Shown: positions 1 through 29,163, counted from the stretch's first letter. The stretch: DNA of 29,163 nt from Synechococcus sp. (GCA_051439605.1 JBFRWN010000143.1:1-29163); one strand, 5' to 3'. Program-made: numbers and translations. Notes: generated by a model not told the origin, from the sequence alone.

Positions 1-104
1 ACGCCGAACCAACCTACGTAGATGCGGTTGTCGGTGCTGGTGACCCACTCGCAGAACTGCTCCCATACGCTGCTGCTTTCGCGGCGTTGTACTAGAGTTG
101 TCAT
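1..104 (-). CDS. psbA: Photosystem II D1 protein, N-terminal part (runs off the window edge)
   Basis: Not in the ORF track. Manual minus-strand translation from ATG at 104 gives [34 protein letters not shown], the diagnostic D1 N-terminus. Confidence 0.97.
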
Positions 105-141
105 TTGAAAATTCCTGGGAAAGAAAAAAGATGATGGTGTA

Positions 142-169
142 ATTATACCTATTTGTAACGGAATGTAAA
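142..169 (-). promoter_or_regulatory. psbA promoter: -35 TTTACA, -10 TATAAT and an overlapping HLR1 (RpaB) direct repeat
   Basis: The minus strand reads TTTACATT-CC-GTTACAAA-TAGG-TATAAT. Positions 152-169 match the HLR1 consensus (G/T)TTACA(T/A)(T/A)-N2-(G/T)TTACA(T/A)(T/A) perfectly. TATAAT is at 142-147, with a 16-nt spacer from TTTACA. Confidence 0.85.
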
Positions 170-326
170 GAGCCTGAGTAAACCTGTTTTGATGTCTCTT
201 TCCCGAAGGTAGCGATCTACTGCGTTTTGGGAGGCATGCTACACGAGCAGTCCAGAAAGCGGGATAGCCAGGAACAGTTCACTCAAAATAAAGCTGGCGG
301 TGCAGTTTCATGCGGGCAGAGTCGAC

Positions 327-611
327 TTATAACGATCGGGATGGCAGCCATTCTATTAAGGGAAATCGAGCCTTCTTAGCCAAGCCTGCAAGACAAAGCT
401 TGTTGCCTTGCTCTGCTGGCACCCAGTACCTTTTGTTTTTACAGAGTTCGAAGTATTCCCCAAACGCTGGGCCTCTTCGCGATCGCCCCCAGGCGCTGTA
501 GTCCTGAGCAGCCCCCCAAATTTCGGGCTCTAGCTTGATAGTTTGGACGGCCACAATCTTGACGTTGTCCTGAAAATAATTGCGGACGGAGTCGGGTTTC
601 AGGGGTTTCAT
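327..611 (-). CDS. Hypothetical protein (94 aa)
   Basis: ATG preceded by an AGGAG SD-like motif; co-oriented between crtW and psbA; no recognised motif. Confidence 0.55.
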   Translation of the reverse strand: MKPLKPDSVRNYFQDNVKIVAVQTIKLEPEIWGAAQDYSAWGRSRRGPAFGEYFELCKNKRYWVPAEQGNKLCLAGLAKKARFPLIEWLPSRSL

Positions 612-738
612 CGAAGCTCCTGTTGCATGAGTGCTAGTTGTATCTCGCGGCGCATTCTGACTAAAGAGAGAATTTTAAGTACGGCCGCACCGATTTATAG
701 AATTCTTAATTCAGTTTTATCTCGATCTCTTCGCGATC

Positions 739-1500
739 TTAAGTAGTGGATGTCACTTTAATTGAGCCGTGCCCCACGGCTTCAGGCAATCTGTACCAGG
801 GGAGGTAGGGGTAAGCATGGTGTTCCCAGTGATATCCGAAGTGATAGCAAGCTAGCATCGAAAAGATCCTTGGAAAGTAATAGCTTCGAGCTACATGAGG
901 ATTGTCGTGGTTGCTAATTGAATAATGGGGTAGGTAAGTCCCGAAAATAAATAGCTGTATCGAACTCAGGCACCACGGAACTATCCAAAACAAAACTAAA
1001 TGAGGCAAGCTAACCTTGGCCCCAGCCACGATTGCGAACGAGATAAGACCGATTCCCATCCCCGTCAGAATCAACTGACGAGAATTTATGTAGGTGGAAA
1101 CGAACAAGCAATACCATTTGACAGCATGCCAGAGGGGACTGCTGCCCGAATCAGCATGAAAATCAGGATCGCGCGCTTGGGCTGGATAACAATGGTGCCG
1201 CCAATGCAGCTTGCGACAGGGGCCATAGGGTAAGAACCCATACATCCCTAGCGCCAGACTGCCTATCCATCTATTTTCTCGTGGATGATTTGGAAGCACG
1301 TTGTTGTGCATTGCATCGTGGGCGATCGCGAATAGCCCCGTGTGCAGAAACGTTCTGACACAAACTCCTAGTGCCAAGGCTATTGCCGAACATTCGGCTA
1401 AATCCCACGAGAACAACCACACCAAACTAGATATCCAAGCCACCGCGATTGCAGAGGAGACTTGAACGCCAACCCAATAGGCTCGGTTCCCCTTCGACAT
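739..1500 (-). CDS. crtW: Beta-carotene ketolase (CrtW type, fatty-acid-desaturase superfamily)
   Basis: Three His boxes in CrtW context: TGLFAIAHDAMH, LHWRHH..PA...DPDFH and CYHFGYHWEHH.YP..PW; also QLFIFGTYLPH. Start uncertain: the ORF is open to 1605, and ATG 1500 gives a typical ~253 aa. Confidence 0.88.
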   Translation of the reverse strand: MSKGNRAYWVGVQVSSAIAVAWISSLVWLFSWDLAECSAIALALGVCVRTFLHTGLFAIAHDAMHNNVLPNHPRENRWIGSLALGMYGFLPYGPCRKLHWRHHCYPAQARDPDFHADSGSSPLWHAVKWYCLFVSTYINSRQLILTGMGIGLISFAIVAGAKVSLPHLVLFWIVPWCLSSIQLFIFGTYLPHYSISNHDNPHVARSYYFPRIFSMLACYHFGYHWEHHAYPYLPWYRLPEAVGHGSIKVTSTT

Positions 1501-1656
1501 TGACTGCCGAGACTGTTTACATAACTCAATATTAGCCATCAAGAAATCAACTTTTGTTGCGACGCATTCTTGTAAGTGGTGTGTGCAGAGGATGCTGGAT
1601 GTCATTCACAAACAACAGTCTTGGCTTGGTCTGACATCCGGCCAGTTTTTAGTAGC

Positions 1657-2184
1657 ATGCAAAATCGACTTTCACTGTCTCCGCGCTATTTCTTAGATGA
1701 CGAATCACCTTGGCTGGTTGGAATCGATCCTGTTCGCCGCTACTGGATTCGGGTTAATGGTGATTCGTCCCGAACTATAGCGGTACCGGGGCTGTCGATC
1801 GCTTCGCTAGATGAATTCAAAAAAGCGGTTCTAAGTTTTCGCTCCCTCGAGATCGGAGCAATCCTTGCTTTGCCTACCTTCACGACTGAACCCCTGGTGA
1901 TTCAGCATTTGGCCGATAACCTCTATGCAATATCCCACCCGGTAGAAGGAGCTAGTACTTGGCATTTGTTTGATCGGGAAACCGTAGAATCCTTTTTGCT
2001 AGCAGCCCATCCTGATTGGAAATCTTCCCAGCAAGACATTAGCTTGGGACGCGATCTAATCCTTCAGTCTTGGCACCAGCCCAGCGCTGAAAAACACATC
2101 TGCACTGACATCACAGGTTTTCAAGACGGGAGAAACTCGAGCAGTTCTTCCAAAGACGCTAAAAGATCGACGCGAACCGATTGA
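1657..2184 (+). CDS. Hypothetical protein, divergent from crtW
   Basis: Long ORF with globular-protein composition; ATG at 1657 avoids overlap with the crtW frame. Confidence 0.7.
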   Translation: MQNRLSLSPRYFLDDESPWLVGIDPVRRYWIRVNGDSSRTIAVPGLSIASLDEFKKAVLSFRSLEIGAILALPTFTTEPLVIQHLADNLYAISHPVEGASTWHLFDRETVESFLLAAHPDWKSSQQDISLGRDLILQSWHQPSAEKHICTDITGFQDGRNSSSSSKDAKRSTRTD

Positions 2185-2570
2185 GTCTGGTTTTGAGGAG
2201 TAAGGGTGAAACGCCAAGCAACGTTGACATTGAAGATAAGGGCAGCTAATTTACCCTCACATCAATTTTCGGCTGAATTAACCTCACCGTTTGCTCTTAA
2301 AATCACGCAATTTCGGCAGGACACCGATAAGCGGTTTGATTTGTAGAATTTCATCACCTCAAGTTTAATTAATGTAACATAAGATTGACGAATCACTTCT
2401 GTATCTATCTAAGAACCGTTCGTTTGTCCAATCGAGATGAAAAACTCCAGATCGGAGCGAAGCACTCAATGTTTGAATAGCAACGCTAGCAAGCGAGTGC
2501 TTCATCCATAGGAGTTGACTGGTTGGCACCGTTTTACCTTTACGATTGGAATTCAAGCTGGGAAAGAGGA

Positions 2571-2837
2571 GTGGCGAAAGTGGACGCAGATCGATCGCGC
2601 ATCGTAGAAATGGCCTGGGAGGATCGCACTCCCTTCGAAGCAATTGAGGAGCAGTTCGGTTTGAAAGAAGCCGATGTCATCCGACTCATGCGGCGAGTAC
2701 TTAAACCCTCTTCGTTCAAACTTTGGCGGCAACGTGTCAGCGGTCGCAAAACGAAACACCTTCAGTTGCGATCGCCCGACGTAACGCGAGCTTACTGTCC
2801 AACACAGAGCAAGCCTCGGTCTTCTCGTTCCCGGTAA
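2571..2837 (+). CDS. TIGR03643/DUF2805-family protein
   Basis: RIVEMAWEDRTPFEAIEEQFGL.EADVI.LMR..LKPSSFKLWR.RV.GRKTKH signature; GTG start preceded by GAAAGAGGA. Confidence 0.85.
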   Translation: MAKVDADRSRIVEMAWEDRTPFEAIEEQFGLKEADVIRLMRRVLKPSSFKLWRQRVSGRKTKHLQLRSPDVTRAYCPTQSKPRSSRSR

Positions 2838-2901: not shown

Positions 2902-3681
2902 ATGGCTGTAATTGGAGAAGACAGTGCTCGGGTTGCGCTAGTGGTGGGGGCCAGTCGCGGCATAGGCTTGGAATTCGTGCGGCAATTGCTGACGATCCCG
3001 CAATTTGAGACGGTGTGGGCCACCTACCGCACGCGAGAATCGGCAACAGGACTCTTGGAGATGGCCCAGTCAGACATGGCTGAAGGAGATCGCCTGCAGT
3101 GCCTGTCGATGGATGTCACTGACGAAGGACAAATTGCTTCGGGGTTAGTCGAAATTAAACAACAGACCAAGCACCTGCACCTCGTCGTGAATTGCGTCGG
3201 TATCTTGCACGACGACACAATGCGTCCCGAGAAAGGTCTGCGCCAACTGGAGATGGAGCAACTGACCCGATATTTCCAAACCAACAGCATCCCCTCGGCG
3301 CTGCTCGCCAAACATCTTCTACCCCTGCTGAAGCACAGAGATCGCAGCGTCTTCGCCAGCATCTCGGCCAAAGTCGGTAGCATTGGCGATAACTTTTTAG
3401 GGGGATGGTATGGCTATCGAGCCTCGAAAGCTGCGCTGAATATGTTGATGCGCACGGCAGCGATCGAATACCGCCGCAAAAGCCCTGAAACCATTATCGT
3501 TACTCTCCACCCCGGCACCACCGACACCGATTTATCCAAACCGTTTCAAAGCAATGTCCCTCCCGAAAAGCTCTTTTCCACCGAGCGGACCGTCTCGCAG
3601 TTACTCGATGTCATTTCTGGATTGGAGTTGGAAGACAGCGGCCAGTTTTTCAATTGGGACGGTCAACCTTTGCCTTGGTAG
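2902..3681 (+). CDS. Short-chain dehydrogenase/reductase, C-factor (CsgA)-like
   Basis: GASRGIG nucleotide-binding motif, SAKVGSIGDN.LGGWYGYRASKAALN (YxxxK), LHPGTTDT.LS.PF, and C-terminal F.NWDG..LPW. Confidence 0.92.
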   Translation: MAVIGEDSARVALVVGASRGIGLEFVRQLLTIPQFETVWATYRTRESATGLLEMAQSDMAEGDRLQCLSMDVTDEGQIASGLVEIKQQTKHLHLVVNCVGILHDDTMRPEKGLRQLEMEQLTRYFQTNSIPSALLAKHLLPLLKHRDRSVFASISAKVGSIGDNFLGGWYGYRASKAALNMLMRTAAIEYRRKSPETIIVTLHPGTTDTDLSKPFQSNVPPEKLFSTERTVSQLLDVISGLELEDSGQFFNWDGQPLPW

Positions 3682-3683
3682 CT

Positions 3684-3737
3684 ATGCGGGCTTTCTTCTT
3701 ATGCGGGCTCTCTGATGCGGGCTCTTTGATGAGAGCT
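3684..3737. repeat. Short imperfect tandem repeat ATGCGGGCT between convergent genes
   Basis: Copies at 3684, 3701 and 3715, plus a degenerate ATGAGAGCT at 3729. Confidence 0.6.
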
Positions 3738-4579
3738 TAAGCAGGCTTGAGACGGTCTAAATCCAACTGCATGCTATCGACGACGGTGGCGTAGCATTCT
3801 TCGACGTAATCGCGATCGCGAGCGGCGTCGGGACCGTAGCGATCGAACGTAATGGGGGCGCAAACCCGAGTCAAGATTTGAGAAGGGACGGGTAAGTGGG
3901 GTAGAGGCCCGAAGGCTAAGCCCCACGGCAGGCCGAGATAGATGGGAAATACTTCTGGATCGACGCCAAACATCCAGGGGAGCAAACCGCGTTCGTTGAG
4001 AAATTGCATTTGTTTGTAGCAATCCTCCAGGACGATGAAGGTGTCGTGAGCCCCCCAAGAAATAATCGGAATAATAGGGACTTCTTCTCGGAGAGCGACT
4101 TTGATAAAGCCCATCTGCCTGGCTAGATGAATGCGTTGGCGCATTCGATGAGGGCGAAACATATCTCGTGCCCCTCCCGGATACACCAGTACACTTCCTC
4201 CCTGCTGCAGGGCGGAAAAAGCCATTTTGGGATGTGCTTGCACTGCCCCCAACCTGGAAGCGAGTTCCGCCATCGGTCGGGCTACCTGCCAGACTTTAGG
4301 GTGCATCAAGCCGTAGATCGCCCGCTCGAAACCAAACCGTTGAAACCAGTCCACCATAAACATGGGCAAATCGGGACTGGCGATGCCGCCATTGTGGGAT
4401 CCCACGAACAGAACTCGCTCTTGAGAGTCGGTGGGAATGTTTTCCCAACCATCCGACTGAACCCGGAAGTAATAGCGATAAAGCCATTTCCACACCGGCA
4501 TCCACGTTTGGATTGTTTTTGGATCGCGGGCCTCTAGAGACCAGCCACCAAAGGGATTTGTGCGTTGCGAAGCTGCCAT
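3737..4579 (-). CDS. Lysophospholipid/DGAT2-like acyltransferase family protein
   Basis: VGSHNGG..SPD, VLVYPGG..D, GFIKVAL...VPIIP motifs; ATG at 4579 preferred over TTG at 4672. Confidence 0.85.
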   Translation of the reverse strand: MAASQRTNPFGGWSLEARDPKTIQTWMPVWKWLYRYYFRVQSDGWENIPTDSQERVLFVGSHNGGIASPDLPMFMVDWFQRFGFERAIYGLMHPKVWQVARPMAELASRLGAVQAHPKMAFSALQQGGSVLVYPGGARDMFRPHRMRQRIHLARQMGFIKVALREEVPIIPIISWGAHDTFIVLEDCYKQMQFLNERGLLPWMFGVDPEVFPIYLGLPWGLAFGPLPHLPVPSQILTRVCAPITFDRYGPDAARDRDYVEECYATVVDSMQLDLDRLKPA

Positions 4580-4945
4580 GCGAAGAAATATGAAGAAATG
4601 CTTAAGATTTATCCTAGCGCAGCAATCCTGCTCATAGGCATTTGTTTTATAGCTAGCGAGTAGAACCCACAAACGGATGGATTCATCAATGTAGTGTTTT
4701 CTCTTACAGTGCGCTGTGATGGAAAGACCCGATCCTATTCAGATGCCGGGTCTAGAGACCTTAGGATGGTTGCACTTTTTTGAAGCGTCACTACCCATCC
4801 ATGCCAAATATTGAACTATCCCAGATAAAAGGTACGTTACCAATAATGATGGTGAGCGAGCATCATCGAGGATTCGTAGAGTGTTCAACAAACTCCGCAA
4901 CTACCATCCCATCGAGATCGGAACTTTTAGTTTGAGAAACTAAGT

Positions 4946-5608
4946 CTACAGGAGCCCTCTATATCTGATGAACAATAAAATCGCAGCCCACGACCCCAGC
5001 GTCACTTTAATGGCAACCAGAATATTTAACAGTGGAATCCAGCCTCCGCTCGCTAAGTTTCCGAGTTCTCCATGCGGTAATGCAAGACCCGATAGACTGA
5101 GCAAGGCAAAGAGTATGAAGACCAGTACCGATACTTTTTCCAATGTGGCAGCGTGCCACCGTTTGTAGATCGCCTGCATCCACTTGGATGAAGAGGTAAT
5201 CGCAATCAAACCAATTGCAGTACCGCCGGCAACACCTGCCGCAAATCCACCTCCCGGACTCAGATGGCCGCGAATTGCCAGTTCGATACCAATTAATGCA
5301 GCAATCGTAGCCCCCAAGCGGGCAAGGACAATCGAGGGGTGATCGTTAAATTGGTAGACCGTACCGTGGGGTTCTTCGTCAGCCAGCAAGTAGCTCACTC
5401 CCATAATGGAAATCGAAAACACCACCACCTCGAAAATGGTGTCGTAGAGTCGATTTCGAAAAATAATTCCCGAGACGGCATTAGACACCCCCGACTCTTG
5501 CACGATCGCCTCCACAACCCCCATGCCATCAAATTCAATTCCGAAATCGGAAATGACCACCATTTTAATGTAGAAGACAATTCCAGCCAGAATGTAAACC
5601 CATTTCAT
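4946..5608 (-). CDS. mrpB: Mrp/Mnh Na+/H+ antiporter subunit B
   Basis: NAVSGIIFRNRLYDTIFE and RGHLSPGGGFAAG motifs; last gene of an overlapping operon. Confidence 0.9.
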   Translation of the reverse strand: MKWVYILAGIVFYIKMVVISDFGIEFDGMGVVEAIVQESGVSNAVSGIIFRNRLYDTIFEVVVFSISIMGVSYLLADEEPHGTVYQFNDHPSIVLARLGATIAALIGIELAIRGHLSPGGGFAAGVAGGTAIGLIAITSSSKWMQAIYKRWHAATLEKVSVLVFILFALLSLSGLALPHGELGNLASGGWIPLLNILVAIKVTLGSWAAILLFIRYRGLL

Positions 5609-6252
5609 GATTGCTGTTCGACCTTGCTAGCTTCCGATTTATTAACTGTGGGGCGATCGCCATTAGCGGAATAAATGTCCGCAAGTAGTACTTGGGGTTT
5701 CTCTAATTGAGTTTCGAGAATGTCGTAGAGGCGAGGAACGCGAGTTTGAAACTGATATCTCAGCGGCGTACGATCGGAGAACTCTTCAGAATGAGATAAC
5801 TCGTCAGCATGTGGGGACAGAATGGCGTGCACTTCCTTCGTACTCAACGCTCGCTTTAGATCGCTAGCATCTGCATAGTAGACAGGCTCCAAGCGCATGT
5901 GGTGCTGGCTACACAGCTCCCGAATTTCCGCGATCGGCGATGGTGATAATTTCTTGTGCCCGTTGGTATCTGCGAACGCGGTTTCGTCCGCCTGACGCAC
6001 TCCCACCTTGATGCTCATCGACGATCGCACCGCGATCGCGTACAGAGTAATCGACAGCATGGTGCCTACCAATGCCTCCGTCAGAGCCACATCAGCAGCC
6101 CCCAACAAGGCATAGACTAGGGCAGCGATCGCCCCCACAATCCCGCGAATAACCAATGCCTGATAGGGATTGACCTGCAGCACCAACATGAGCGATGACA
6201 GGGGCAGCAACGCCACAATCGGAATCATGACAAACAAATCATTCACGAGCAT
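5605..6252 (-). CDS. DUF4040-domain Mrp-associated subunit (MnhB-related)
   Basis: LGAADVALTEALVG motif, hydrophobic N-terminal half, ATGA coupling to mrpB. Confidence 0.85.
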   Translation of the reverse strand: MLVNDLFVMIPIVALLPLSSLMLVLQVNPYQALVIRGIVGAIAALVYALLGAADVALTEALVGTMLSITLYAIAVRSSMSIKVGVRQADETAFADTNGHKKLSPSPIAEIRELCSQHHMRLEPVYYADASDLKRALSTKEVHAILSPHADELSHSEEFSDRTPLRYQFQTRVPRLYDILETQLEKPQVLLADIYSANGDRPTVNKSEASKVEQQS

Positions 6253-6520
6253 TGCCTCCAGAGGAGCAATAAGCCAATACGTAGCCTAAAACGGTATTCC
6301 AAATCGACAGAGAAACTAACGCCAGCAATAGCAGCGGCCATTCCCTAGGAATCTTGAGAAGCAGACCAACTACAACCAGCATCGAGCCCAACGTATCTGA
6401 AATCGACAGAAAGTGCAGTTTGTACAAAATCGACCGCTCCCCCAACAGCGGAACCGTTCCGTACATCCAAAACACTAGTCCAACGGCAATGCAAGACAAA
6501 CTCAAGTAATTCACAATCAT
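6239..6520 (-). CDS. mrpG: Mrp/Mnh subunit G
   Basis: KLH.LS.SDTLGS motif, three hydrophobic segments, operon position. Confidence 0.85.
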   Translation of the reverse strand: MIVNYLSLSCIAVGLVFWMYGTVPLLGERSILYKLHFLSISDTLGSMLVVVGLLLKIPREWPLLLLALVSLSIWNTVLGYVLAYCSSGGNARE

Positions 6521-6765
6521 GCGTTAACCCTCCGAATGATATGGGCTAACAGCATTAACGCCGCATTACCAACACTTAAAATCAACACCCCCACCACCCC
6601 AATCATCCAGTCATCGCGCAAAATTGAAACCAATAAAATCATGATGGATGTCTTGCTGGAAATACTGGAAAATGCCAGCATCCGCTGCCAAATATCCTCA
6701 TCTTGATACGCCTTAAACATCGGAATCAAGAGGATGGCAAACATGACGAGTAAAGCCCAGCTCAT
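6517..6765 (-). CDS. mrpF: Mrp/Mnh subunit F
   Basis: 82-aa protein with three hydrophobic segments (WQRMLAF), between E and G with overlapping start/stop codons. Confidence 0.75.
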   Translation of the reverse strand: MSWALLVMFAILLIPMFKAYQDEDIWQRMLAFSSISSKTSIMILLVSILRDDWMIGVVGVLILSVGNAALMLLAHIIRRVNA

Positions 6766-7151
6766 TAACCCTCATCCTCCTTTATTTGATGGACTTCGTA
6801 CCAGCCATCATTGTGGTATTTCAGCACAATTGTTTTTGGGGTAAACGTAATAATAAAGATATCTAGAAAGATTAATCCAGGAGTTCGCCTGGGCCTCACC
6901 CGTTGCAGCACAATGTCCTCATGCTTGTGAGGCTGGAACATGATTACAAGTGTCTCCCAATATGCTTGAGGAACGGCGATCGCAACTTCGTATAGGGCTC
7001 TCAGCCAGTCTTTGAGTTTTGAGGAAGCAGCAAAGCCAGTTGGAATCAGTAAAGTGACGGTGATGCCGATGATGATATTGGCCAAACTGACATCTGCCGT
7101 GAGTAGAAACCAAATGGCAATCCGGAGCAGGTAGTTGAGATATTTAATCAT
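6765..7151 (-). CDS. mrpE: Mrp/Mnh subunit E
   Basis: IWFLLT...S.ANI.IG and ITFTPKT motifs; ATG at 7151 overlaps the mrpD stop (ATGA). Confidence 0.85.
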   Translation of the reverse strand: MIKYLNYLLRIAIWFLLTADVSLANIIIGITVTLLIPTGFAASSKLKDWLRALYEVAIAVPQAYWETLVIMFQPHKHEDIVLQRVRPRRTPGLIFLDIFIITFTPKTIVLKYHNDGWYEVHQIKEDEG

Positions 7152-8590: not shown

Positions 8591-8928
8591 TAGGAATATC
8601 GTTTTTCGATGGCCTCGGTCTCTAAGGTGGGATTATCTTTTGACAGCTTCATGACTCCCACCAGCATCAATGCCTGAATCGAAAACCCAATCACAATTGC
8701 GGTCAGAATAACGGCTTGGGGAACTGGGTCCGCGTAGGCAACAGTCCTACCGGCGGTAAAGATGGGGGTGAATAAGCCGCTTCTGGCTGAAATTAAAACA
8801 AATAGAGCAACAACGCCGGTACTCATGACGTCCATAGATATGATTTTCATGATCAGGTTTTTCTTAATCAACACCCCCAAAAATCCAATCAAAATTGTCA
8901 TTAGCACCAGAGATTTAAGAAGTATCAT
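8590..8928 (-). CDS. mrpC: Mrp/Mnh subunit C
   Basis: KKNL.MKI.SMD and DPVPQAVILTAIVIGF signature; alternative ATG at 8958. Confidence 0.92.
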   Translation of the reverse strand: MILLKSLVLMTILIGFLGVLIKKNLIMKIISMDVMSTGVVALFVLISARSGLFTPIFTAGRTVAYADPVPQAVILTAIVIGFSIQALMLVGVMKLSKDNPTLETEAIEKRYS

Positions 8929-9235: not shown

Positions 9236-9263
9236 AACCGTTCAGCTCGGTTTCTGAAAAGAG

Positions 9264-20559: not shown

Positions 20560-20577
20560 TATGTAACAAATCGTTAC
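20560..20577 (-). promoter_or_regulatory. HLR1-like site overlapping a CATAAT -10-like element upstream of the sigma gene
   Basis: Minus strand GTAACGAT-TT-GTTACATA(ATG); the second half-site is perfect and the first has two mismatches. Confidence 0.5.
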
Positions 20578-20895
20578 GTCGAATTAATCTTCTAGCTCAA
20601 GACTGCTCAATACCGAAGGAGTTTTTGCGATTCAAGAGACCTTAACCCCTGCAGAGATCGTCTAGTGAGCACATGTACTCACTTGGCTGCTTTGCCTGCC
20701 AATCGTTTGCTCAACAGGTAAACGGAAGACTTCCTTAGGGCAACTCCCACTCGGCGATCGCGGCACTTACGATAGGTCCAGTTCGCTGTTATACCGCTCC
20801 TGCCAGTGCATAAACGTAGCGGCATACATCGGATGAGGAGTTTTATCTGGAGGCTAGCGGCTCTACCAAACGGGTAGAGGTTGCTGTGAGTGCGT

Positions 20896-22044
20896 ATGAC
20901 AACAGATAGTGCAAAAGTAGCGGTCCTGCTGTGCGGCTACGGAGAAGTCGAAGAATACCAGGAGTTTGCAGATTACAACGAGCGGGCTCTGCGCTTGCTG
21001 GCATCCAAATTTATTAAATTTCCAGAGTTTTCCATCCCCTGGCTGGCGAAGGCATTGGAGTTTACCGATCGCCGCGAGTGGAGCAAGCAAAACCACTATC
21101 GCTCTCCCCATAACGAAATTTTCGAAGCGCAGCGAGCCGGTCTCGAAAAAGTGCTGCAGGAGCGATACGGCGATCGCGTGGCAGTGTTCAAAGCCTTTAA
21201 TTTCTGCGAGCCCTTTCTTCCCCATCAAGTGCTGCAGCAAATTCGCGAGCAAGGATATAACCGCTTGCTCATTTATCCGCTGCTAGTGGTGGATTCCATC
21301 TACACGAGCGGTTTAGCCCTGCAACAGATTAACGAGGCTTTGGATAACGAGCACGATTGGATAGCAGACCTGCTTTACTTACCCAGCTTTTTCGATCGCC
21401 CCGAATATCACCAACTCATGGCCAAACATATTGAAGGGCGGCTTCAAGACTTACAGGGCAGCTATGCTCGCTCGCAAATCGGCATCATTTTGCTCAACCA
21501 CGGTTGTCCGCTGGACTCCAAAGGATTTGAAAGCGGCATTCGCGAAAGCGAAGCGCTGTACGGCCATATCCGAGAGCGTCTGATCCATCGCTATCCCCTC
21601 GTAACCATTGGCTGGATGAATCACGACACCCCCGGCAAGTGGACCACCCCCGATATGGAGCAAGCAGCCACTAACCTGCTCACCATCGGGGCAAAAGCGT
21701 TAGTATTTGCCCCGATCGGCTTTGCTACCGAAAATCACGAGACGATGCTGGATGTGGGGTACGCCATCAAAAAGTTTCAGTCCAAAGCCGAGTGTCTCCA
21801 TCTCGATTGTTTGAACGACGATCCGGCGTTTTTGACGGTGGCAGCTAATTGGATCGATGGCTTGATTGCTGATTCTCTGGGGGAAGGACCGACTGCGCTG
21901 GATACGATGGTAAACCACATGGTCAGCGAGCACCGATCGCCCAATCGCAACCTTGAACTTCATAAGGTTCTCTCGGGCAACGGCCACCATCACCACTCTC
22001 ACGGACATTCTCACGGCAATGGAGGGCACCACCATCACCATTAA
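20896..22044 (+). CDS. Ferrochelatase-family protein with His-rich tail and no CAB domain
   Basis: VAVLL.GYGE, YRSP, L.IYPL....S..TSG, LLNHGCP (catalytic-His position), KW..P, PIGFATENHET..D motifs; ends in HHHHSHGHSHGNGGHHHHH. Confidence 0.82.
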   Translation: MTTDSAKVAVLLCGYGEVEEYQEFADYNERALRLLASKFIKFPEFSIPWLAKALEFTDRREWSKQNHYRSPHNEIFEAQRAGLEKVLQERYGDRVAVFKAFNFCEPFLPHQVLQQIREQGYNRLLIYPLLVVDSIYTSGLALQQINEALDNEHDWIADLLYLPSFFDRPEYHQLMAKHIEGRLQDLQGSYARSQIGIILLNHGCPLDSKGFESGIRESEALYGHIRERLIHRYPLVTIGWMNHDTPGKWTTPDMEQAATNLLTIGAKALVFAPIGFATENHETMLDVGYAIKKFQSKAECLHLDCLNDDPAFLTVAANWIDGLIADSLGEGPTALDTMVNHMVSEHRSPNRNLELHKVLSGNGHHHHSHGHSHGNGGHHHHH

Positions 22045-22074
22045 CCTAGTGAGATTCTTATTGCGGATTGTGCC

Positions 22075-22731
22075 TCAAACTAATCCTTCTAGGATTGCCC
22101 GAACCACCCGACTATCCGTGTCTGCGCGTAGTTTTTCTAAAGCTGCTTCAGCCTTTGGATCGTCAAAACTACGCAGTGTCCGGGCGGCTTGAGCTCTTAC
22201 AAATCCGTCCTCGTCATTTGTAGCTTCCAAAAGGATATCGAGGGCGTCCGATCCATACGGTGGATCGGACAATTTTTGTAGTAGAGCTACAGCAACATGT
22301 TTCACAACTCGGTCGTCCCCGTCGTACCCAGACCGACAGAGCTTGAGCAGAAGGTGCGGACAATCAAAATCCTCTAGAGCCGCGAAAATGCTCTGGCGAA
22401 CCAACCAATGGGGATGTTGCTCGAAGATTTGTTCCAGAAGCGGCAAAGCCCGATCGCCGTACTTCGCTAGGGAATTGGCAGCCTCTGCAATCACATTGCT
22501 ATCCGTTTCGCGTTCAACGATATTCAGTAGTGCCTCGAAACCTTCTTCGGTTTGTTTGTAGCCGAGACCCATGGCGACGAAAGACCGAATCAGAAACTCG
22601 GTATCAAACATTTTTTGCTTGAGTAAAGGGACCGCGTCTACTGGGGGATGGTTTCTGAGCTCGGTAATGCCTTTCATCCGCTGCTGAGGATCTGAGCTTT
22701 CCAAGAGTGTGGCAATTTGCTCTAAGTACAT
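22075..22731 (-). CDS. HEAT-repeat, phycobilin-lyase-like protein, NblB-like
   Basis: LLES.D...R..GI..LR, RSFVAMGLG.K, D.NV.AEAANSL and HWLVRQSI.AAL repeats. Confidence 0.8.
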   Translation of the reverse strand: MYLEQIATLLESSDPQQRMKGITELRNHPPVDAVPLLKQKMFDTEFLIRSFVAMGLGYKQTEEGFEALLNIVERETDSNVIAEAANSLAKYGDRALPLLEQIFEQHPHWLVRQSIFAALEDFDCPHLLLKLCRSGYDGDDRVVKHVAVALLQKLSDPPYGSDALDILLEATNDEDGFVRAQAARTLRSFDDPKAEAALEKLRADTDSRVVRAILEGLV

Positions 22732-23494
22732 CAAATAACCTCAAACGTTCTCATTTTCAGTTTACTTAACTTTACAGAAAGCCGCTGCTGGATCGACCTC
22801 AGGTAGTAGTTAGACGAGTTTTTCACCGGTCTTTCCTAGATTCTGTTAGCGAGATGCAGCCCTAGCCACTACCGTTGCCGCAGGGCTTGAATGTGCTGAA
22901 AACAAGCTAGAGAAGCACTGTTGAACTTGTCTGGCTCAGCAAACAAGGAGCAATTGAATAATTAAACATAAACCAGCTTTATGACTTTGATTAGTTTTAC
23001 TTATGCCAGTGTGAATAATAAGGAATGTTGCGCTAGCTTAAGTTTGTAAAAGGTTGTGAGGAGTTCGGACTCATACAGAAAGCGTAGGTAAGTAGCCTGC
23101 CGTTTCACAGCTCTACTCACGCAACTGACATACAAGTCCGAAAATATTAACACTCAATTAGCTTGGAGTGAATGGCTCTCAATTTACGAAACTGTAGCCT
23201 AGTCATTAGCTCAATTATCAGGCAATACTCCCTTTGGGATTGATGACGTAAACTTTTCAATTTATTTGCCAGCTTTATCATCTGGTAAAGATATCAGGTC
23301 GTAAACTGATTCGGATTCCTCGAGTGATTCATTTGCTTGAGATACCAACTATTCGTCGCACTTGATATATCTTTCCAGTTTGCATCTCAAAAAATTGAAT
23401 AGGTTTTGCCAGGGATCTCGAAAGGAATATCGAAGGCAGTTTCGTTGGGGTCGTTCAAATCCTTGTTGGACAAAGTCACGTAGTCGTTCAAGTG

Positions 23495-24334
23495 ATGGAA
23501 ATGTTGACAACAACACTGGGTGCCGCACCTTCTGTGCTCACTTCAGTACAGTTCGACCTTGTCTACAATGCCTTTTCGTTTTGCATTGCTGCTATGGCAG
23601 CAGCAGCGTTGTTCTTTTTCAATGCAAGAGCGCAAGTAGGGGAAAAGTACCGGCCTGCTTTGCTAGTCTCAGCCTTGGTTGTAAGCATCGCAGCCTACCA
23701 CTACTTTCGAATTTTCAATGCCTGGGATAGCGCGTATTCACTACAGGATGGCATCTACGCAGCAACGGGCATACCGTTCAACGATGCCTATCGCTATGCA
23801 GATTGGTTGTTGACCGTGCCTTTACTCTTAGTTGAGGCTGTCGCAGTCCTTGCTTTAGCCCCTAAGGTGTCGCGCTCGATGTTGCTTAGATTGTCTGCTG
23901 CCGCCATCCTCATGATTGTTACCGGATATCCCGGCGAGATTTCGGATAGCATCAGTGCCCGTCTGATTTGGGGAACGATCAGTACAATTCCCTTTGCCTA
24001 TATCCTCTACGTACTCTGGATTGAACTGAGCAGAGCAATCGAGCGCCAGCCGCAAGAAGTGAAAGGTCTAGTAAAGAGTCTTCGCCTGCTATTGCTGCTG
24101 TCATGGGGGGTGTACCCAATTGCCTACCTACTTCCGGTTCTGGGTGTTGCAGGTGCTTCTGCAACTGTTGGCTTACAGGTTGGGTACACGATCGCAGATA
24201 TTCTGGCTAAGCCTGTCTTTGGACTCTATATCTACGCAATTGCAGTAGCTAAAACCCAAGCAGATCGAGACATCGTGGCAAAGGATAGAGTTGCCATGGC
24301 ACAACCGACTCTTGAAACTGTTGCGAACAACTAA
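23495..24334 (+). CDS. Microbial rhodopsin, Gloeobacter-rhodopsin/xanthorhodopsin type, DTE proton pump
   Basis: Seven hydrophobic segments; YHYFRIF, FNDAYRYADWLLTVPLLLVE (D-T-E), TGYPGE, WGTISTIPF, WGVYPIAY and retinal-binding ADILAKP. Start at 23492, 23495 or 23501. Confidence 0.96.
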   Translation: MEMLTTTLGAAPSVLTSVQFDLVYNAFSFCIAAMAAAALFFFNARAQVGEKYRPALLVSALVVSIAAYHYFRIFNAWDSAYSLQDGIYAATGIPFNDAYRYADWLLTVPLLLVEAVAVLALAPKVSRSMLLRLSAAAILMIVTGYPGEISDSISARLIWGTISTIPFAYILYVLWIELSRAIERQPQEVKGLVKSLRLLLLLSWGVYPIAYLLPVLGVAGASATVGLQVGYTIADILAKPVFGLYIYAIAVAKTQADRDIVAKDRVAMAQPTLETVANN

Positions 24335-24340
24335 CTGGCT

Positions 24341-24375
24341 CGTCACTCCCTCGTCCCAACTACGAGGGGGTGACG
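24341..24375 (+). terminator. Strong stem-loop 3' of the rhodopsin gene
   Basis: 14-bp stem CGTCACTCCCTCGT / ACGAGGGGGTGACG (one G:U pair), 7-nt loop, weak U-tract. Confidence 0.6.
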
Positions 24376-24431
24376 TTCCATCTTCAGAAAAAGAATGTAT
24401 TGTGCCATCAAAAATGGTTGCAGGTAGAACT

Positions 24432-24962
24432 ATGAACGAAAAAGATACGAATTATCTGATTGCTGTAATGGCCAGTCGAGTTCAAGCTGAGGAAGCCTAT
24501 TTTGCTTTACGGAAAGCGGAACTGCCCATCGAGCAACTGGACATTTTAGGTCGTGGCTACAAGACGGCAGACGAGTATGGCTTGATTAACCCTAACGATG
24601 AAGCAGAAAAGCAGGTTAACGGACTTGCGTACTGGGTAATTCCTTTCGGGTTTGCAGCGGGTTTTCTCTTCAATCTCCTGACTGGGATTGAAATCTTCAG
24701 TTGGCTCGGCAATGTGGGTAACCATGTTTTAGGCGGGGTCCTCGGCGCTGCAGCAGGGGCTTTTGGCGCTTATGTTTCCGGCACTTTAACGGGTTGGACC
24801 GTTGGTAGCGGAGACGCGATCGCCTATCGGAACCGATTGAATGCTGGAAAATATCTCATCATTGCCAAAGGCGCTGATGCATTTGTCGAGCGAGCAACTC
24901 AGTTAATTCGACAGTACGACCCTGAAAATCTCCAAGGATACGTCGAGACTGCTAGTGCTTGA
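24432..24962 (+). CDS. Hypothetical membrane protein of a type seen in cyanobacteria (Gly-rich TM segments)
   Basis: NYLIAV...R.QAE.AY.AL, ILGRGYK.ADE.GLI.P and YRNRL.AGKYL pattern; ATG at 24432 avoids overlap with the rhodopsin gene. Confidence 0.8.
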   Translation: MNEKDTNYLIAVMASRVQAEEAYFALRKAELPIEQLDILGRGYKTADEYGLINPNDEAEKQVNGLAYWVIPFGFAAGFLFNLLTGIEIFSWLGNVGNHVLGGVLGAAAGAFGAYVSGTLTGWTVGSGDAIAYRNRLNAGKYLIIAKGADAFVERATQLIRQYDPENLQGYVETASA

Positions 24963-25021
24963 TTTGATGCGGTTGCCGAAAAGTCGCTGCAATAGTTGTG
25001 TTTTATCAGGGGGATGGTTCA

Positions 25022-25663
25022 GTGGAGCAGCTCTTTTCCTATGCAACGATAACGTTTTTAGCCTTGTTCCCAATTGCAAATCCCATTGGGGTTGTCCCCA
25101 CTTTCTACAGCCTGACTGTCAATAACACTCCCAGTCGTCGGGCTCGTCAGGCTCGCAAGGTCGCCATCAATGTCATCGTTGTCTTAACGGTTTTTTTGAT
25201 TGCGGGTCGGCTAATTCTTGACTTTTTTGGTCTGTCAATGGGGGTGCTGCAAGTTGCAGGTGGCCTGTTATTGGCCCATACTGCTTGGGAAATCGTGACA
25301 GCTTATCCATCCTCCACATCCGGAACTGAAGGGCCGGGTCAGGAGAGAGACATCACCTTAATACCGATGGCCGTTCCAATTATTAGCGGACCCGGTGCTA
25401 TCGGGATGGTGATTGGCTTAATTGCCAAAGATCCTCAACCGGCTAACTATGTTGGAAGCCTGATTGGAATCCTGGCTATTGGGGCACTCGTATATTTCTG
25501 TTTGGTTCTGGGGAAGCCGTTGGTCGATTTGCTAGGCCGAAGTGGGATCGATGCCTTCACTCGGATTCTTGGCGTTTTCATCCTGGCATTCTCTATCCAG
25601 TTAATCGTTGATGGCCTCTTCTCGATACTTAACGATCTTCCCCTTGCCGAACTTCTAATGTAA
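25022..25663 (+). CDS. MarC-family membrane protein
   Basis: LF.I.NPIG..P.F, AGG.LL, L.PMA.P.I.GPGAI and TRILG....A..IQ.I..G motifs; alternative GTG at 24998. Confidence 0.9.
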   Translation: MEQLFSYATITFLALFPIANPIGVVPTFYSLTVNNTPSRRARQARKVAINVIVVLTVFLIAGRLILDFFGLSMGVLQVAGGLLLAHTAWEIVTAYPSSTSGTEGPGQERDITLIPMAVPIISGPGAIGMVIGLIAKDPQPANYVGSLIGILAIGALVYFCLVLGKPLVDLLGRSGIDAFTRILGVFILAFSIQLIVDGLFSILNDLPLAELLM

Positions 25664-25785: not shown

Positions 25786-26703
25786 ATGGTTTATCAACCC
25801 CCGTGTTTTACCCAAGGCGCTCTCTCAGTCCAATTGGGTTCAATGACGTACTACACCAACAACAAACAATTTTGGTTTGGGAGCAATGACGATAAAGTAG
25901 AGCATCCCACACTGATGTTCTTACACGGTTTCGGTGGCGGGTCGTCATCTTATGAATGGTCGAAAGTCTATCCTGCGTTTGCCAGTCAGTACCGCATCCT
26001 TGCTCCCGATTTGATGGGGTGGGGTAAATCCAGTCATCCCCCTCTTCAATACCAAGTCGATGACTACTTGAATAGCCTGACCGAGTTTATCGAGAAGACT
26101 TGCGATTCCCCAATCACGGTCATTGCATCCTCTCTCACCGCTGCTTTCACGGTTCGACTGGCGATCGCCCGTCCTAAGCTGTTTAAGTCGCTCATTTTAA
26201 TCGCACCCGCAGGTCTGAAGGATTTTGGACAAGAAGTCAGTCCTTTGGCTCAGATCTTTAGCATTCCGGTCCTAGATCGCCTGATTTACCAGGCAGCAAT
26301 CTCGAATGAATGGGCGATCGAAAGTTTTTTAAAGCAGCAAACCTTTGCTCGGCCAGAGCGGGTCTATCCAGAAATCGTCAATGCTTATCTGGATTCAGCC
26401 ATGCAGCCCAATGCTGAATATAGCGCTCTATCGTTTGTACGTGGGGATTTGAGCTTCGATCTGGCAACATACATGCCGCAGCTGGAAATCCCTACGGCGA
26501 TCCTGTGGGGATATGCAGCTAAATTCTCTCGCCCGGACGTCGGTCGTCGCTTGTCAGAGCTCAACCCAAAGGCGGTTAAAGTATTTCAAATTTTAGAAGA
26601 TGTCGGACTCACCCCCCAATTGGAATTACCTGCAGTTGTAGTTGGATTGATTCAGAGCTATCTGTTGCTGTTGAACGAAACTAGTGAACTGAAGGCTCAA
26701 TAG
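25786..26703 (+). CDS. Alpha/beta hydrolase fold protein
   Basis: FLHGFGGGSS.YEW, APDL.GWG.S, nucleophile elbow IASSLTAA, PTAILWG, VGLTPQLELP. Confidence 0.88.
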   Translation: MVYQPPCFTQGALSVQLGSMTYYTNNKQFWFGSNDDKVEHPTLMFLHGFGGGSSSYEWSKVYPAFASQYRILAPDLMGWGKSSHPPLQYQVDDYLNSLTEFIEKTCDSPITVIASSLTAAFTVRLAIARPKLFKSLILIAPAGLKDFGQEVSPLAQIFSIPVLDRLIYQAAISNEWAIESFLKQQTFARPERVYPEIVNAYLDSAMQPNAEYSALSFVRGDLSFDLATYMPQLEIPTAILWGYAAKFSRPDVGRRLSELNPKAVKVFQILEDVGLTPQLELPAVVVGLIQSYLLLLNETSELKAQ

Positions 26704-26747: not shown

Positions 26748-26966
26748 CTAATCGCTTCTCAATATTTTTAATAATGTTGCGGTTTCCAAGTTTGACTCAT
26801 CATTAAGGCATCCGCCCTTTTTGGAGTACTGGCAGATCCGGGCGATACATTCCTCGCGATCGAACGGCCTGCCTACACTTGGGAAAAATAGCTTTCCATC
26901 AGTCGTAATTCCGCAGGCAGGACATGTCCGCTTGCTGGCCACTACTCGCGCTTCTTTGTTCGCCAT
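26748..26966 (-). CDS. Small Cys-rich hypothetical protein (72 aa)
   Basis: ATG start; CPAC...ARICQY....GCLN spacing suggests a metal-binding motif. Confidence 0.7.
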   Translation of the reverse strand: MANKEARVVASKRTCPACGITTDGKLFFPSVGRPFDREECIARICQYSKKGGCLNDESNLETATLLKILRSD

Positions 26967-27202
26967 AAGGTTTTATTAGTTTCTATCTTGGCCAATGCGA
27001 TCGAGCTTTGATGAAGCGCGCTTTCAACGTTGCCTGCCCCTCCTTCAACGCACGCCTCATATTTTCAAGCTGACTTTCGCTCATCTTGTTGGATTTGCAA
27101 GTTATAGAACTCTTTCCAAGCTCCTTGCTATTGACGCAAAAACTATACTCGCTTGGCGAATTTTATGTGCTTTTAGCTTGACGAGATTGAGCGATCCAGT
27201 TC

Positions 27203-27373
27203 TTAGGATACTGTGAAAGCTACCCACATAATGCCTCCTAGAAAAGCCACGGCAATCGCCCCAAAGAGCGCATACTGAATCATTTGCTTTTTTGTAGGGG
27301 GCTCAGCGATCTGTTCCTTGGTCTCAGTTGGAAAATTATTGATGATGCCGCGCTCGTCCTTTGTATATGGCAT
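27203..27373 (-). CDS. psb34: Photosystem II assembly factor Psb34 (Ssl1498 family)
   Basis: MPYTKDERGIINNFPTETKEQIAEPP followed by one C-terminal TM helix ending AF.VS; 56 aa from ATG 27373. Confidence 0.85.
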   Translation of the reverse strand: MPYTKDERGIINNFPTETKEQIAEPPTKKQMIQYALFGAIAVAFLGGIMWVAFTVS

Positions 27374-27564
27374 AAATGGTTCCAGACCTAACACTTGCCC
27401 CACAACTATACGGCATTGTTATCGTTACCGTCTTTCCGGAGATGGTAGAAGCTTCTAGCGAAGACACCAAGAGCTAGATAATGATGGTGTCAGGTGATTC
27501 AATCATTTGTAGCAAAGCAACAGTGCCGATTTCAGTGCAGCGTTCCTGGCAACATTCCGCTTTC

Positions 27565-27600
27565 AAAAAAGAGTGCTGCAAATATTTTTAGCAGCACTCT
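27565..27600 (-). terminator. Intrinsic terminator
   Basis: Minus strand AGAGTGCTGC-N11-GCAGCACTCT followed by a T run. Confidence 0.75.
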
Positions 27601-27635
27601 CAATTTATTGTTTCTGAAGTAAAATTTTTGTCGCC

Positions 27636-27797
27636 CTATCTGGCTACCAACGTCTTTTTGTCCTGTTTGGAACGATTGGGACGTTCCTCTGCAAGAGATT
27701 GAATGTTAGAGAGATAGGCTTTCAAGTCTTGACCGATGCGATTGCGATCGCCTTTTCCAAGTTGAGAGAGATTAATTTTGATTGCTTTTTTAGACAT
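27636..27797 (-). CDS. Putative small basic protein (53 aa)
   Basis: Manual translation MSKKAIKINLSQLGKGDRNRIGQDLKAYLSNIQSLAEERPNRSKQDKKTLVAR; AT-rich upstream region and a terminator 35 nt downstream. Confidence 0.5.
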   Translation of the reverse strand: MSKKAIKINLSQLGKGDRNRIGQDLKAYLSNIQSLAEERPNRSKQDKKTLVAR

Positions 27798-28274
27798 ACA
27801 GGCACAGTTAATATTTCTTCACTTAATATAACTGATTTAGGAGGCAGTTGCATTCCCCCATAACCGAAACTATCAATTATCTGAAATGTCTAATTCTTTT
27901 ACGCACCTCGAATACTGTGTAAATTTTCCTTCAGCTGACGCAGCCGCTACAGGTCATAGAATCGGTGTATATGTAATTTTATGAATTGGAGGTGACTATC
28001 TACTGTCACAGTCCACTATCAGCTGGTGTTGATGACAGTCTATGTCAGTGGACAGCCTCGCATTTCTCTCTTCGACCAATGGGGTTGATGCCACAGAGAA
28101 TTGAGAGAAGAGCGGGAATTACGAGAGGATCGGAGACTTTTCTCAGTAGGATCGAATAGGTTGAGATACCGATCGGTATTGAGTGTCCCATCTGAAACAA
28201 GCCTGTTGGCTGCGATCGGCAGCCCTATCTGTGAGAGGTTAGCAGGCGCGATCGCACGAGCTAAACAGTATTTA

Positions 28275-29163
28275 TTGAAACGAGTTTCTTCCGCTAGAGC
28301 TACATTTCCACTACCTGCTGTAGTGAACCAGGACCTCATCAAGTTGGGGTTGCTGATGTTGGCCGTCGACCCGCAGTTGGGAGGAGTGGCAATCGCAGGA
28401 CGTCGCGGCACAGCCAAGACCGTCTTAGCGAGAGGATTGCATGCGTTATTGCCCCATATTGAAGCGATCGAAGGTTCCTGCTGTAATTGCGATCCCAACA
28501 ATCCAGGGGAATGGGATGATGATACGGCTGGGCAGATGGCTCGATACAGATCGTCAACAGCCGATCGCCAGCTATCGCTCCCCATTGAGGTCAAGCCAAC
28601 CCCCTTCGTCCAGGTTCCGCTGGGAGTGACGGAGGATAGGCTGCTTGGGTCGGTGGATGTGGTTCGCTCTGTAGAACGGGGAGAAACTGTCTTCCAACCG
28701 GGTTTGTTAGCAGAAGCTCATCGCGGCGTACTCTACGTCGACGAACTGAATTTGCTAGAGGACAGCATTGCCAATCTGCTGCTGACAATTTTGACGGAGG
28801 GGCGAAATCGCATCGAGCGGGAAGGCATCAGCTTCGAACATCCATGCAAACCCTTATTCATTGCCACTTACAATCCCGCAGAAAAAGAGTTGCGCTCTCG
28901 CTTGTTCGACCTATTTGCCATTGGACTATCGGCAGATAGCACGCTGACAGTAGAACAACGGGTAGAAGGGGTAGAGCGTGCGATCGCCTACCAAAACAAT
29001 CCGCAATCATTTCTCGAACGGTACGCTACTGACATTGACGAACTCAAATTGCAAATTACCCTCGCCCGAGAGTTACTCCCTCTCGTAACGATCGCCCGGC
29101 ATCAGATCGTCTATCTGGTCTCGGAGGCCGAGCGAGCACAAGTGGAAGGTCACCGAGGGGAAT
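28275..29163 (+). CDS. chlD: Magnesium chelatase subunit D, N-terminal AAA+ part (runs off the window edge)
   Basis: Not in the ORF track. The frame is open from 28089 to the end: FPLPAVV.Q..IK..L...[67 protein letters not shown]. Only TTG starts precede the conserved part; 28275 is a guess. Confidence 0.9.

Follow-up and report, generated by a model that had tools for sequence, protein, structure and literature searches.

Clustered spare copies of light-stress genes and an excess of HLR1 sites on a 29-kb contig of Synechococcus sp.

Contig C143 of Synechococcus sp. (GCA_051439605.1 JBFRWN010000143.1:1-29163), analysed here over its whole length of 29,163 nucleotides and called the window, brings together psbA, crtW, a photolyase-like gene, clpC, a SigD-type sigma factor gene, a ferrochelatase-like gene, a xanthorhodopsin gene, a second psb34 and part of a chlD paralog, among others. 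A first-pass annotation had read it as a discrete island for high light and rhodopsin-based phototrophy, served by its own sigma factor. As far as sequence can tell, it is probably instead a real, lineage-variable photoprotection cluster acting through RpaB derepression: many of its genes are spare copies, and it is unusually rich in sites matching HLR1, the motif to which RpaB, a regulator of the high-light response, binds. Contigs of the host genome (G000) are designated C, other genomes G and loci L.

Genes of the window and their spare copies

Families were assigned by Pfam and NCBIfam scans of 39 open reading frames (ORFs) together with a separate scan for DUF2256, and all 13 genes named in the first-pass annotation lie within the 29 kb (Table 1), psbA and chlD being incomplete at the contig ends. 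Several names denote resemblance under the curated cut-off (CrtW 216 of 350 bits, NblB 85 of 300, HemH 72 of 125, SigD 463 of 524), and an NblD-like gene is likewise below its NCBIfam cut-off (38 of 80 bits). About half of the contig lies outside that list and holds an acyltransferase gene, bicA with seven mrp genes, doxX, an epimerase gene, a DUF1997 gene, marC, an alpha/beta hydrolase gene, the NblD-like gene and three ORFs without family. These three small ORFs are at 327-611, 26983-27084 and 27636-27797; in the genomes read, homologues were seen only for the last. No Rfam family is found in the window.

The window is rich in genes that have relatives elsewhere in the same genome. When its proteins were compared with the host genome by tblastn, with crude gene calls and a paralog defined by 40-99% identity, 14 of 30 window genes had one to three paralogs, versus 579 of 3981 (14.5%) elsewhere (P 3e-5); only one of 75 other 30-gene blocks exceeds the window. 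Together with quick trees of ClpC, ChlD and ferrochelatase, this bears out the earlier proposal that the clpC, ferrochelatase and chlD genes here are extra, divergent paralogs, and the housekeeping copies of clpC, hemH, chlD, sigD-type, psb34 and psbA genes for which it called are all found outside the window. Second copies also exist for psb34, crtW and bicA, whereas the genome has one copy each of the rhodopsin, epimerase, TIGR03643 and DUF2256 genes and of most mrp genes. The full psbA copy on C39 encodes Glu130, which we take to mark the high-light D1 form. Broken copies of several window modules on C44, C97 and C101, one of them beside an IS1634 transposase gene, show that such modules turn over.

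The trees place these copies more closely. The canonical ClpC is encoded on C44 and a second on C39; the window copy is a third, in a clade (support 100) with G001, G005, G021 and G161, and its N-domain is 80% identical to that of G001, 45% to that of G005 and no more than 48% in every other match listed from 300 genomes. The window sigma scores above the cut-off of the cyanobacterial RpoD-family model and falls in a SigD-type clade (98/96); it clusters with the C97 copy in a single family clade (100/99) and is thus a duplicate made inside the family. SigD-type sigmas are patchy, occurring in 7 of 30 genomes of the order, and in six of these they lie in window-type modules (HEAT-sigD or hydrolase-sigD). 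Region 4.2 is altered in all seven SigD-type sigmas of the host family (SRERVRQ to SAE/SPE/SVE; window 19458-20405, L081:3087-4037). Canonical chlD is on C17, and the window copy, which holds the N-terminal half only, groups with G001 and G009 (support 99); its G001 orthologue has the AAA and MIDAS motifs and a full-length ChlD model score (691 bits, cut-off 500). Besides the canonical gene, the genome has divergent chlD three times, as a pair sharing 96% identity and as one broken gene (window 28272-29163, L075, L162, L082), and C67, which continues the C25 copy, carries a PaO-type oxygenase gene, a fibrillin gene and two strong HLR1 sites.

Two further proteins depart from the families whose names they bear. 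The window ferrochelatase-like protein and the C124 copy belong to another family than the canonical HemH on C123, in a separate clade common to early-branching cyanobacteria and Chloroflexota/Acidimicrobiia; the best PDB matches reach only E 3e-7, and up to two copies occur beside canonical HemH. Judged by its model score and tree position, the window protein is outside the canonical cyanobacterial HemH, with the catalytic His and Glu kept. Canonical HemH (C123, L163) may lack the C-terminal antenna-like extension, since its open frame is 353 aa against 391 in G002. In the photolyase-like protein, 1owl residues R232, E283, N349, M353, W392 and N386 align to L, R, F, A, M and D; these we take to be five lesion-pocket positions and, in N386, the position at flavin N5. 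The Trp chain is intact, all 17 homologues compared carry the same ten residues, and 96 of 300 cyanobacterial genomes have a member of the family. By its pocket residues the protein would not be a cyclobutane pyrimidine dimer (CPD) photolyase, and it is a candidate cryptochrome-type photoreceptor; no description of this residue pattern was found in the literature searched.

The rhodopsin aligns without gaps to Gloeobacter rhodopsin (GR) and keeps H70, D104, T108, E115, G161 and K240, in residue numbers that we take to follow GR. It is a fenestrated xanthorhodopsin (XR) of the DTE type, predicted to pump protons. A rhodopsin was found in none of the order's 29 other genomes and in 22 of 400 from the class, and this one was probably gained by transfer with the two genes downstream. 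The unit of rhodopsin, ORF and marC recurs in G245 and G081; in the complete congener G002, the HEAT gene and the rhodopsin-associated ORF are adjacent, with no rhodopsin. Another window family occurs at four of the 21 rhodopsin loci read, three of them among the five closest (G245, G395, G081) and one among the 16 others, several loci being short. The crtW gene, 22 kb away in the window, is within 4 kb of the XR gene in G081 and G274, and two RPE65-type (retinal-type) oxygenase genes are on other contigs. The module for retinal and carotenoid phototrophy that had been proposed is not borne out by this placement of the oxygenase genes or by the few rhodopsin loci linked to another window gene. 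According to PMC12779958, XR genes have diverse contexts, hli and nblA being the most frequent neighbours, and psXR bound no keto-carotenoid, which leaves a pairing of CrtW with the window rhodopsin unproven.

Table 1. Features of the window (bit scores with a second number are followed by the model cut-off)
Feature	Position	Strand	Basis or remark
psbA, first 34 codons, rest off contig end	3-104	-	protein identical to full C39 copy
HLR1 site upstream of psbA: perfect match 152-169, overlapping weaker match 142-159	142-169	-	22.3 bits
CrtW-like carotenoid ketolase, divergent second copy	739-1539 (739-1605 in the profile scan)	-	NF045690, 216/350 bits; 60% to C131 copy
Conserved cyanobacterial protein without family	1657-2184	+	always divergently paired with crtW; Atlas: unnamed clusters only
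TIGR03643/DUF2805 protein	2523-2837	+	profile match
CsgA-like short-chain dehydrogenase	2902-3681	+	best model PRK09009, 259/330 bits, under cut-off
DAGAT/acyltransferase	3737-4672	-	unlinked to other window genes at every other locus
bicA and seven mrp (mnh) genes, about 6 kb, separate module	4946-10961	-	profile matches; no HLR1
Photolyase/cryptochrome-family protein without CPD-pocket residues, Asp at flavin-N5 position	11753-13423	-	alignment to 1owl
DoxX-family membrane protein	13705-14244	+	profile match; adjoins epimerase in G001, G009, G029
NAD-dependent epimerase/short-chain dehydrogenase, N-terminal extension, hub of shared sub-blocks	14406-15353	-	profile match and locus comparison
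DUF1997 protein	15424-16002	-	profile match
Third ClpC paralog	16112-18577	-	Walker motifs and LGF loop intact; N-domain 42% to nearest in-genome ClpC
HLR1 site upstream of clpC	18730-18747	-	14.9 bits; same place in G001
Decayed sigma-factor gene remnant	19044-19220	-	44% over 59 aa; further pieces seen
DUF2256 protein	19230-19373	-	profile match
Second SigD-type group-2 sigma, family-internal duplicate	19458-20405	-	70% to C97 copy; SigD model best
Overlapping HLR1 matches, both strands, between divergent sigD and hemH-like genes, over -10-like TACATAAT	20553-20577	.	13.3 bits
Ferrochelatase-like protein, separate family, His-rich tail	20896-22044	+	28% to canonical HemH; His202 and Glu282 kept
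HEAT-repeat NblB-like lyase-family protein	22075-22731	-	NF045915, 85/300 bits
HLR1 site 30 nt upstream of HEAT gene	22761-22778	+	15.7 bits
Xanthorhodopsin	23492-24334	+	D104-T108-E115, H70, K240, fenestration G161; single copy
Membrane protein without family, travels with rhodopsin and marC (G245, G081)	24432-24962	+	
MarC/NAAT-family membrane protein	24998-25663	+	links rhodopsin, clpC and epimerase sub-blocks
Alpha/beta hydrolase	25786-26703	+	upstream of sigD in G009, G029
NblD-like small cysteine protein	26748-26966	-	NF053522, 38/80 bits
Second psb34	27203-27373	-	NF033486, above cut-off; 69% to C32 copy
Small conserved ORF without family	27636-27797	-	66% to C13 copy; homologues in G001, G003
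Divergent chlD paralog, N-terminal half, cut by contig end	28272-29163	+	96% to C25 copy, 57% to canonical C17

HLR1 sites and shared control

HLR1 sites, with the consensus as in PMC11633204, were scanned for both by consensus with a mismatch limit and by a matrix built from 14 sites, none of them on this contig. With at most two mismatches the window holds six matches, versus 0.47 in shuffles (none of 100 shuffles reaches six), and its count ranks first of 104 genome tiles of 29 kb. By the matrix, four of 22 intergenic regions, those of psbA, clpC, sigD/hemH and the HEAT gene, reach at least 12 bits, where 0.32 would be expected (P 3e-4); with the threshold at 10 bits, the window shares its rank with one other tile. 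Other strong matrix sites in the genome precede genes recognised by eye as psaA-, ftsH-, desaturase-, hli- and apcE-like. The sites are in part conserved: that of clpC, beside a -10-like box, is retained in G001; that of the HEAT gene stands before homologues in G001, G002, G003 and G005 and before a broken HEAT copy on the host's C97; and the sigD/hemH intergenic region shows 75% conservation in G001, its match there having two mismatches but falling below 11 bits. HLR1 sites also lie between the epimerase gene and hydrolase-sigD in G009 and G029, near clpC-marC in G161 and before the rhodopsin gene of the metagenome contig L111. At 2361, before the TIGR03643 gene, there is a weak HLR1-like match (6.6 bits). 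In G002, two perfect tandem sites precede a psb34-like gene upstream of a hemH-like gene (L047:8238-9052).

Shared high-light control, which the first-pass annotation had supposed without having seen these sites, is on their strength probable. Control by the window's own sigma, which it had also proposed, is unsupported because no second shared motif was found and the sigma gene itself stands behind an HLR1 site. A spaced-dyad search of 15 intergenic regions, of low power, gave no shared motif other than HLR1 (best P 5e-6 versus about 690,000 tests), scanning 18500-23600 for sigma-70 promoters found fewer of them than shuffled sequence contains, and the -10-reading helix is nearly identical in both SigD copies; by this weak test there appears to be no sign of a private sigma regulon. 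In Synechocystis, an HLR1 site near the start means repression in low light (PMC6525291), and Tables S1 and S3 of that work assign repression through HLR1 and induction by high light to psbA2/3, to the transcript that joins sigD and a DUF1997 gene, and to slr1687, a HEAT gene. The window DUF1997 gene parallels that of the Synechocystis sigD transcript by family name.

Neighbourhoods in other genomes and chromosomal setting

The complete arrangement occurs in no other genome searched, and conservation is a matter of parts. The largest shared block is a colinear 11-kb core of six genes in one congener, G001, with about 83% protein identity and promoters kept; the order there is as in the window (photolyase-like, doxX, epimerase, clpC, sigD, hemH-like), the contig ends inside hemH, and hydrolase-nblD and bicA-mrp are on separate contigs. 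Reshuffled sub-blocks of two to five genes recur in 12 further genomes and two metagenome contigs. in G009 and G029, from the other family of the order, doxX-marC-epimerase is followed by an HLR1 site and this by hydrolase-sigD; G005 has epimerase-marC-clpC as well as HEAT-sigD...TIGR03643-HCP-NTF2-ORF-crtW; G161 has clpC and marC around two HLR1 sites; L111 has clpC, epimerase, two HLR1 sites and rhodopsin; and the metagenome contig L112 has DUF1997, epimerase, HCP and nblD-like genes with three HLR1 sites. The divergent pairing of crtW with the ORF at 1657-2184 is also seen on the host's C131 and in G003 and G005. At least two of 24 window families occur at 25 of 271 loci; once three loci that are the window, one on another host contig and one duplicate are removed, the remaining 20 (13 genomes and two metagenome contigs) connect 18 of the 24 families in one neighbourhood network, the 29 metagenome matches below 45% not being used. 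Conservation of the neighbourhood, which the first-pass annotation had proposed to check, holds for the core and the sub-blocks and fails for the whole set.

Within the network, bicA-mrp, the acyltransferase gene, psb34 and chlD have no links elsewhere. The bicA-mrp block recurs without other window genes in G001, G002, G005 and G038; a palindrome ATAG-N8-CTAT at 11031 in this region is presumably a LysR/CcmR-type site, and the block is a neighbouring module under other control. In G002 (L048) bicA-mrp abuts canonical chlD, and both gene types are on the window contig too. The hli and nblA genes and an unnamed gene of 70 residues flank the long epimerase gene in three genomes of family f5 (L145:7525-11322; L227; L228).

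As to borders, no tRNA, integrase, transposase or att-type border repeat lies inside the contig, whose repeats are at chance level only; the true borders are beyond the contig ends. The GC content is low, at 48.9% versus 51.3%, a difference rejected as a sign of foreign origin, the core phycobiliprotein contig C141 being equally low (48.0%). Tetranucleotide composition ranks 41 of 176, and HIP1 density is 7.2 versus 8.6 per 10 kb. C141 also carries a full fatty-acid beta-oxidation operon (fadD, fadB, fadA, fadE) beside phycoerythrin genes (L072:3384-11586), which is unusual for cyanobacteria.

The host assembly (4.9 Mb, 143 contigs, 99.98% complete, 4.1% contaminated) breaks at both ends of the window in repeated genes, psbA on the left, after 34 codons, and chlD on the right. 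Synteny of the TIGR03643 gene with C117 genes in G001 and G003, together with the psbA variant, suggests a chromosomal join of the left end to C117; C115 was considered as the continuation, its gene content fitting, but the same two observations favour C117. C115 (L084) holds a further light-stress group (the psbA 3' end, HCP, MATE, UbiA-like, cryptochrome DASH and DUF2267 genes), its DUF2267 gene carries a strong HLR1 site, and the rhodopsins of G081 and G395, which are among the closest, have MATE and UbiA-like genes at their sides as well. In contigs of read run X1, a possible source, the right 20 kb of the window has a flat depth of 29-36, next to 34 for C115, depth here being no copy number; one 8.3-kb piece runs from sigD to the hydrolase gene. 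Run X5 has zero cover over 22520-25183, the rhodopsin unit, and no contig bridging the gap, from which nothing is concluded. Four runs besides X1 hold about half of the searched stretch, and all are marine sediment metagenomes. Whether the region is plasmid or chromosome had been left for checking: it is probably chromosomal, without sharp borders, and among the plasmids sampled in one collection the best rhodopsin match was 52%, on two non-cyanobacterial plasmids, and the epimerase had no match.

A probable patchwork within the RpaB regulon

We favour, with moderate confidence, the reading that the window is a patchwork of reshufflable modules, many of them spare copies, that bear HLR1 sites; RpaB probably keeps them repressed under low light and lets them go together when light is strong. 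In low light, host RpaB would repress the genes behind HLR1 sites; in strong light it would leave them, and psbA could supply fresh D1. The extra ClpC, with HEAT and NblD-like partners, may serve turnover of antennae and damaged proteins, and the second SigD would amplify the general high-light response rather than serve a private regulon. The spare chelatase may remove photosensitising porphyrin, and the xanthorhodopsin, supplied with retinal from enzymes encoded elsewhere, would contribute a proton pump.

Several observations weigh against this reading. The loci of the 18-family network were each chosen for holding one window gene and are no random sample. Photolyase-like and epimerase genes are linked in one of 39 genomes holding both, no second window family occurs at 17 other photolyase-like loci, and the hemH-like gene has ordinary neighbours at 25 other loci (two with a SigD-type gene 6-7 kb away), with no functional theme among the 54 of 118 neighbouring ORFs scanned. 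The long epimerase was rejected as a marker of HLR1-rich loci (0.31 versus 0.30 sites per 10 kb in short-type controls); another window family does occur at six of 15 long-epimerase loci versus two of 13 controls, five of the six being known beforehand. At four mismatches the window's lead in HLR1 sites is gone (rank 8-9), 18 of the 22 intergenic regions have no strong site, none precedes crtW, the TIGR03643 gene, the photolyase-like gene, doxX, psb34 or chlD, and the rhodopsin gene is preceded, at a distance of 450 nt, by no more than a match with three mismatches. Since psbA and HEAT genes carry HLR1 wherever they are located, part of the excess reflects gene content, and whether a site lies in a repressing or an activating position was read from -10-like boxes, not mapped starts. 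In the table of PMC6525291, psb34 (ssl1498) is not among the high-light induced genes of Synechocystis.

It is also possible, if distinctly less probable, that the window is a chance mosaic in a rearrangement-prone chromosomal stretch, where only operons of two to five genes are meaningful and the 29 kb have no joint function. Gene order is poorly preserved in the host family, decayed module copies lie on three other host contigs, the four unlinked units named above meet nothing elsewhere, and in G002 the homologues are at six places (about 1.13, 1.29, 1.39, 3.01, 4.24 and 5.06 Mb, 0.1-1.6 Mb apart), while eight window genes gave no match there with the queries used, a patchiness seen among close relatives. 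Chance would not readily account, however, for a window that is first of 104 tiles in HLR1 sites and second of 76 blocks in paralogs, for 11 kb kept with promoters at about 83% protein identity in G001, or for the same families meeting in new orders in other families of cyanobacteria.

The first-pass view, in which a discrete accessory island travels whole, depends on its own sigma factor for transcription and, much as FaRLiP does for far-red light, shifts the cell toward photoprotection and rhodopsin phototrophy, we consider improbable. The confirmed extra paralogs, the patchy SigD-type sigma within these modules, the lower GC and a third ClpC limited to few lineages would fit it; the absence of mobility genes, tRNA and border repeats from the contig, the unremarkable composition, the closest relatives of most genes inside the family, the lack of any non-HLR1 motif surviving multiple testing, the near-identical SigD helices and a whole set found in no other genome searched all speak against it. 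Still less credible, and in our view very unlikely, is a module for nitrogen-shortage chlorosis in which ClpC and the NblB- and NblD-like proteins dismantle phycobilisomes while the rhodopsin sustains proton force, light being secondary. According to PMC7865187, NblD acts in nitrogen-starvation bleaching and NblA via ClpC. In the loci read here, nblA lies next to two of the closest rhodopsins, those of G245 and G395, and adjoins the epimerase gene in three genomes; the same idea was raised for XR-nblA pairs in PMC12779958. There is, however, no nblA in the window, three copies being elsewhere in the genome; the NblB and NblD scores are below cut-off; and the motif found is HLR1, no search having been made for NtcA boxes.

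Comparison with known systems helps to delimit the patchwork reading. Far-red and low-light photoacclimation (FaRLiP/LoLiP) clusters have a fixed gene set and order across distant cyanobacteria and a dedicated regulator. They resemble the window in clustering paralogs of photosynthesis-related genes for one light regime. The window has no fixed set or order (its genes are scattered or missing in G002, which does not support a FaRLiP-like constancy), no photosystem-core or phycobiliprotein paralogs besides psbA, and the motif of the host's core regulator, with a SigD duplicate inside and no photoreceptor-regulator cascade shown; it would work like a clustered accessory arm of the RpaB regulon and is not of the FaRLiP type. 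The RpaB/HLR1 regulon of Synechocystis PCC 6803, as tabulated in PMC6525291, shares HLR1 at or near psbA, sigD (with DUF1997) and HEAT lyase-like promoters, but its targets there are single, scattered housekeeping genes, whereas the window packs second and third copies with a rhodopsin and an extra ClpC. The phycocyanin and nblA genes of Acaryochloris pREB3 likewise bring HLR1 and plug into the host RpaB network (PMC11633204), although they are described there as a plasmid-borne antenna gain, and the window has no plasmid sign and a protective cargo. In the account of PMC4336711, Shewanella oneidensis RpoE2-ChrR sets a spare ferrochelatase, a photolyase-family gene and a CsgA-like dehydrogenase under one oxidative/photo-stress regulon; that system uses an extracytoplasmic function sigma with an anti-sigma, whereas in the window the sigma belongs to group 2, an anti-sigma was not found, and the ferrochelatase-like protein is of an unrelated family. 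The window XR shares with GR and psXR (PDB 6nwd, 9wfa; PMC12779958) the DTE motif, His-Asp pair, fenestration glycine and light-stress neighbours. Where that survey reports no operon and no carotenoid gene near XRs, the rhodopsin-ORF-marC unit recurs here in two other genomes; an XR in a recurring three-gene unit and near crtW is not reported there.

No description of a comparable cluster was found in the literature searched, most subscription journals being outside its scope. A bolder idea, which we put forward only tentatively, is that there are "photoprotection islands" akin to defence islands, in which a pool of mobile modules wired to RpaB (third ClpC, extra SigD, xanthorhodopsin-ORF-MarC, epimerase-DoxX-hydrolase, HCP-CrtW, nblA/nblD, hli) gathers in variable order, the window being the fullest example found. 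If so, MarC, DoxX, the long epimerase, the hydrolase, DUF1997 and two unnamed ORFs would be new high-light genes, and a dedicated ClpC would strip the antenna while the rhodopsin takes over. Were the genes of the patchwork not co-induced, the window would be a gene-rich patch of ordinary operons; if they are, the RpaB high-light response, as a rule dispersed over the genome, can take the form of spare genes gathered in one cluster, and the window would offer a short list of uncharacterised genes and an accessory ClpC for the study of photoprotection.

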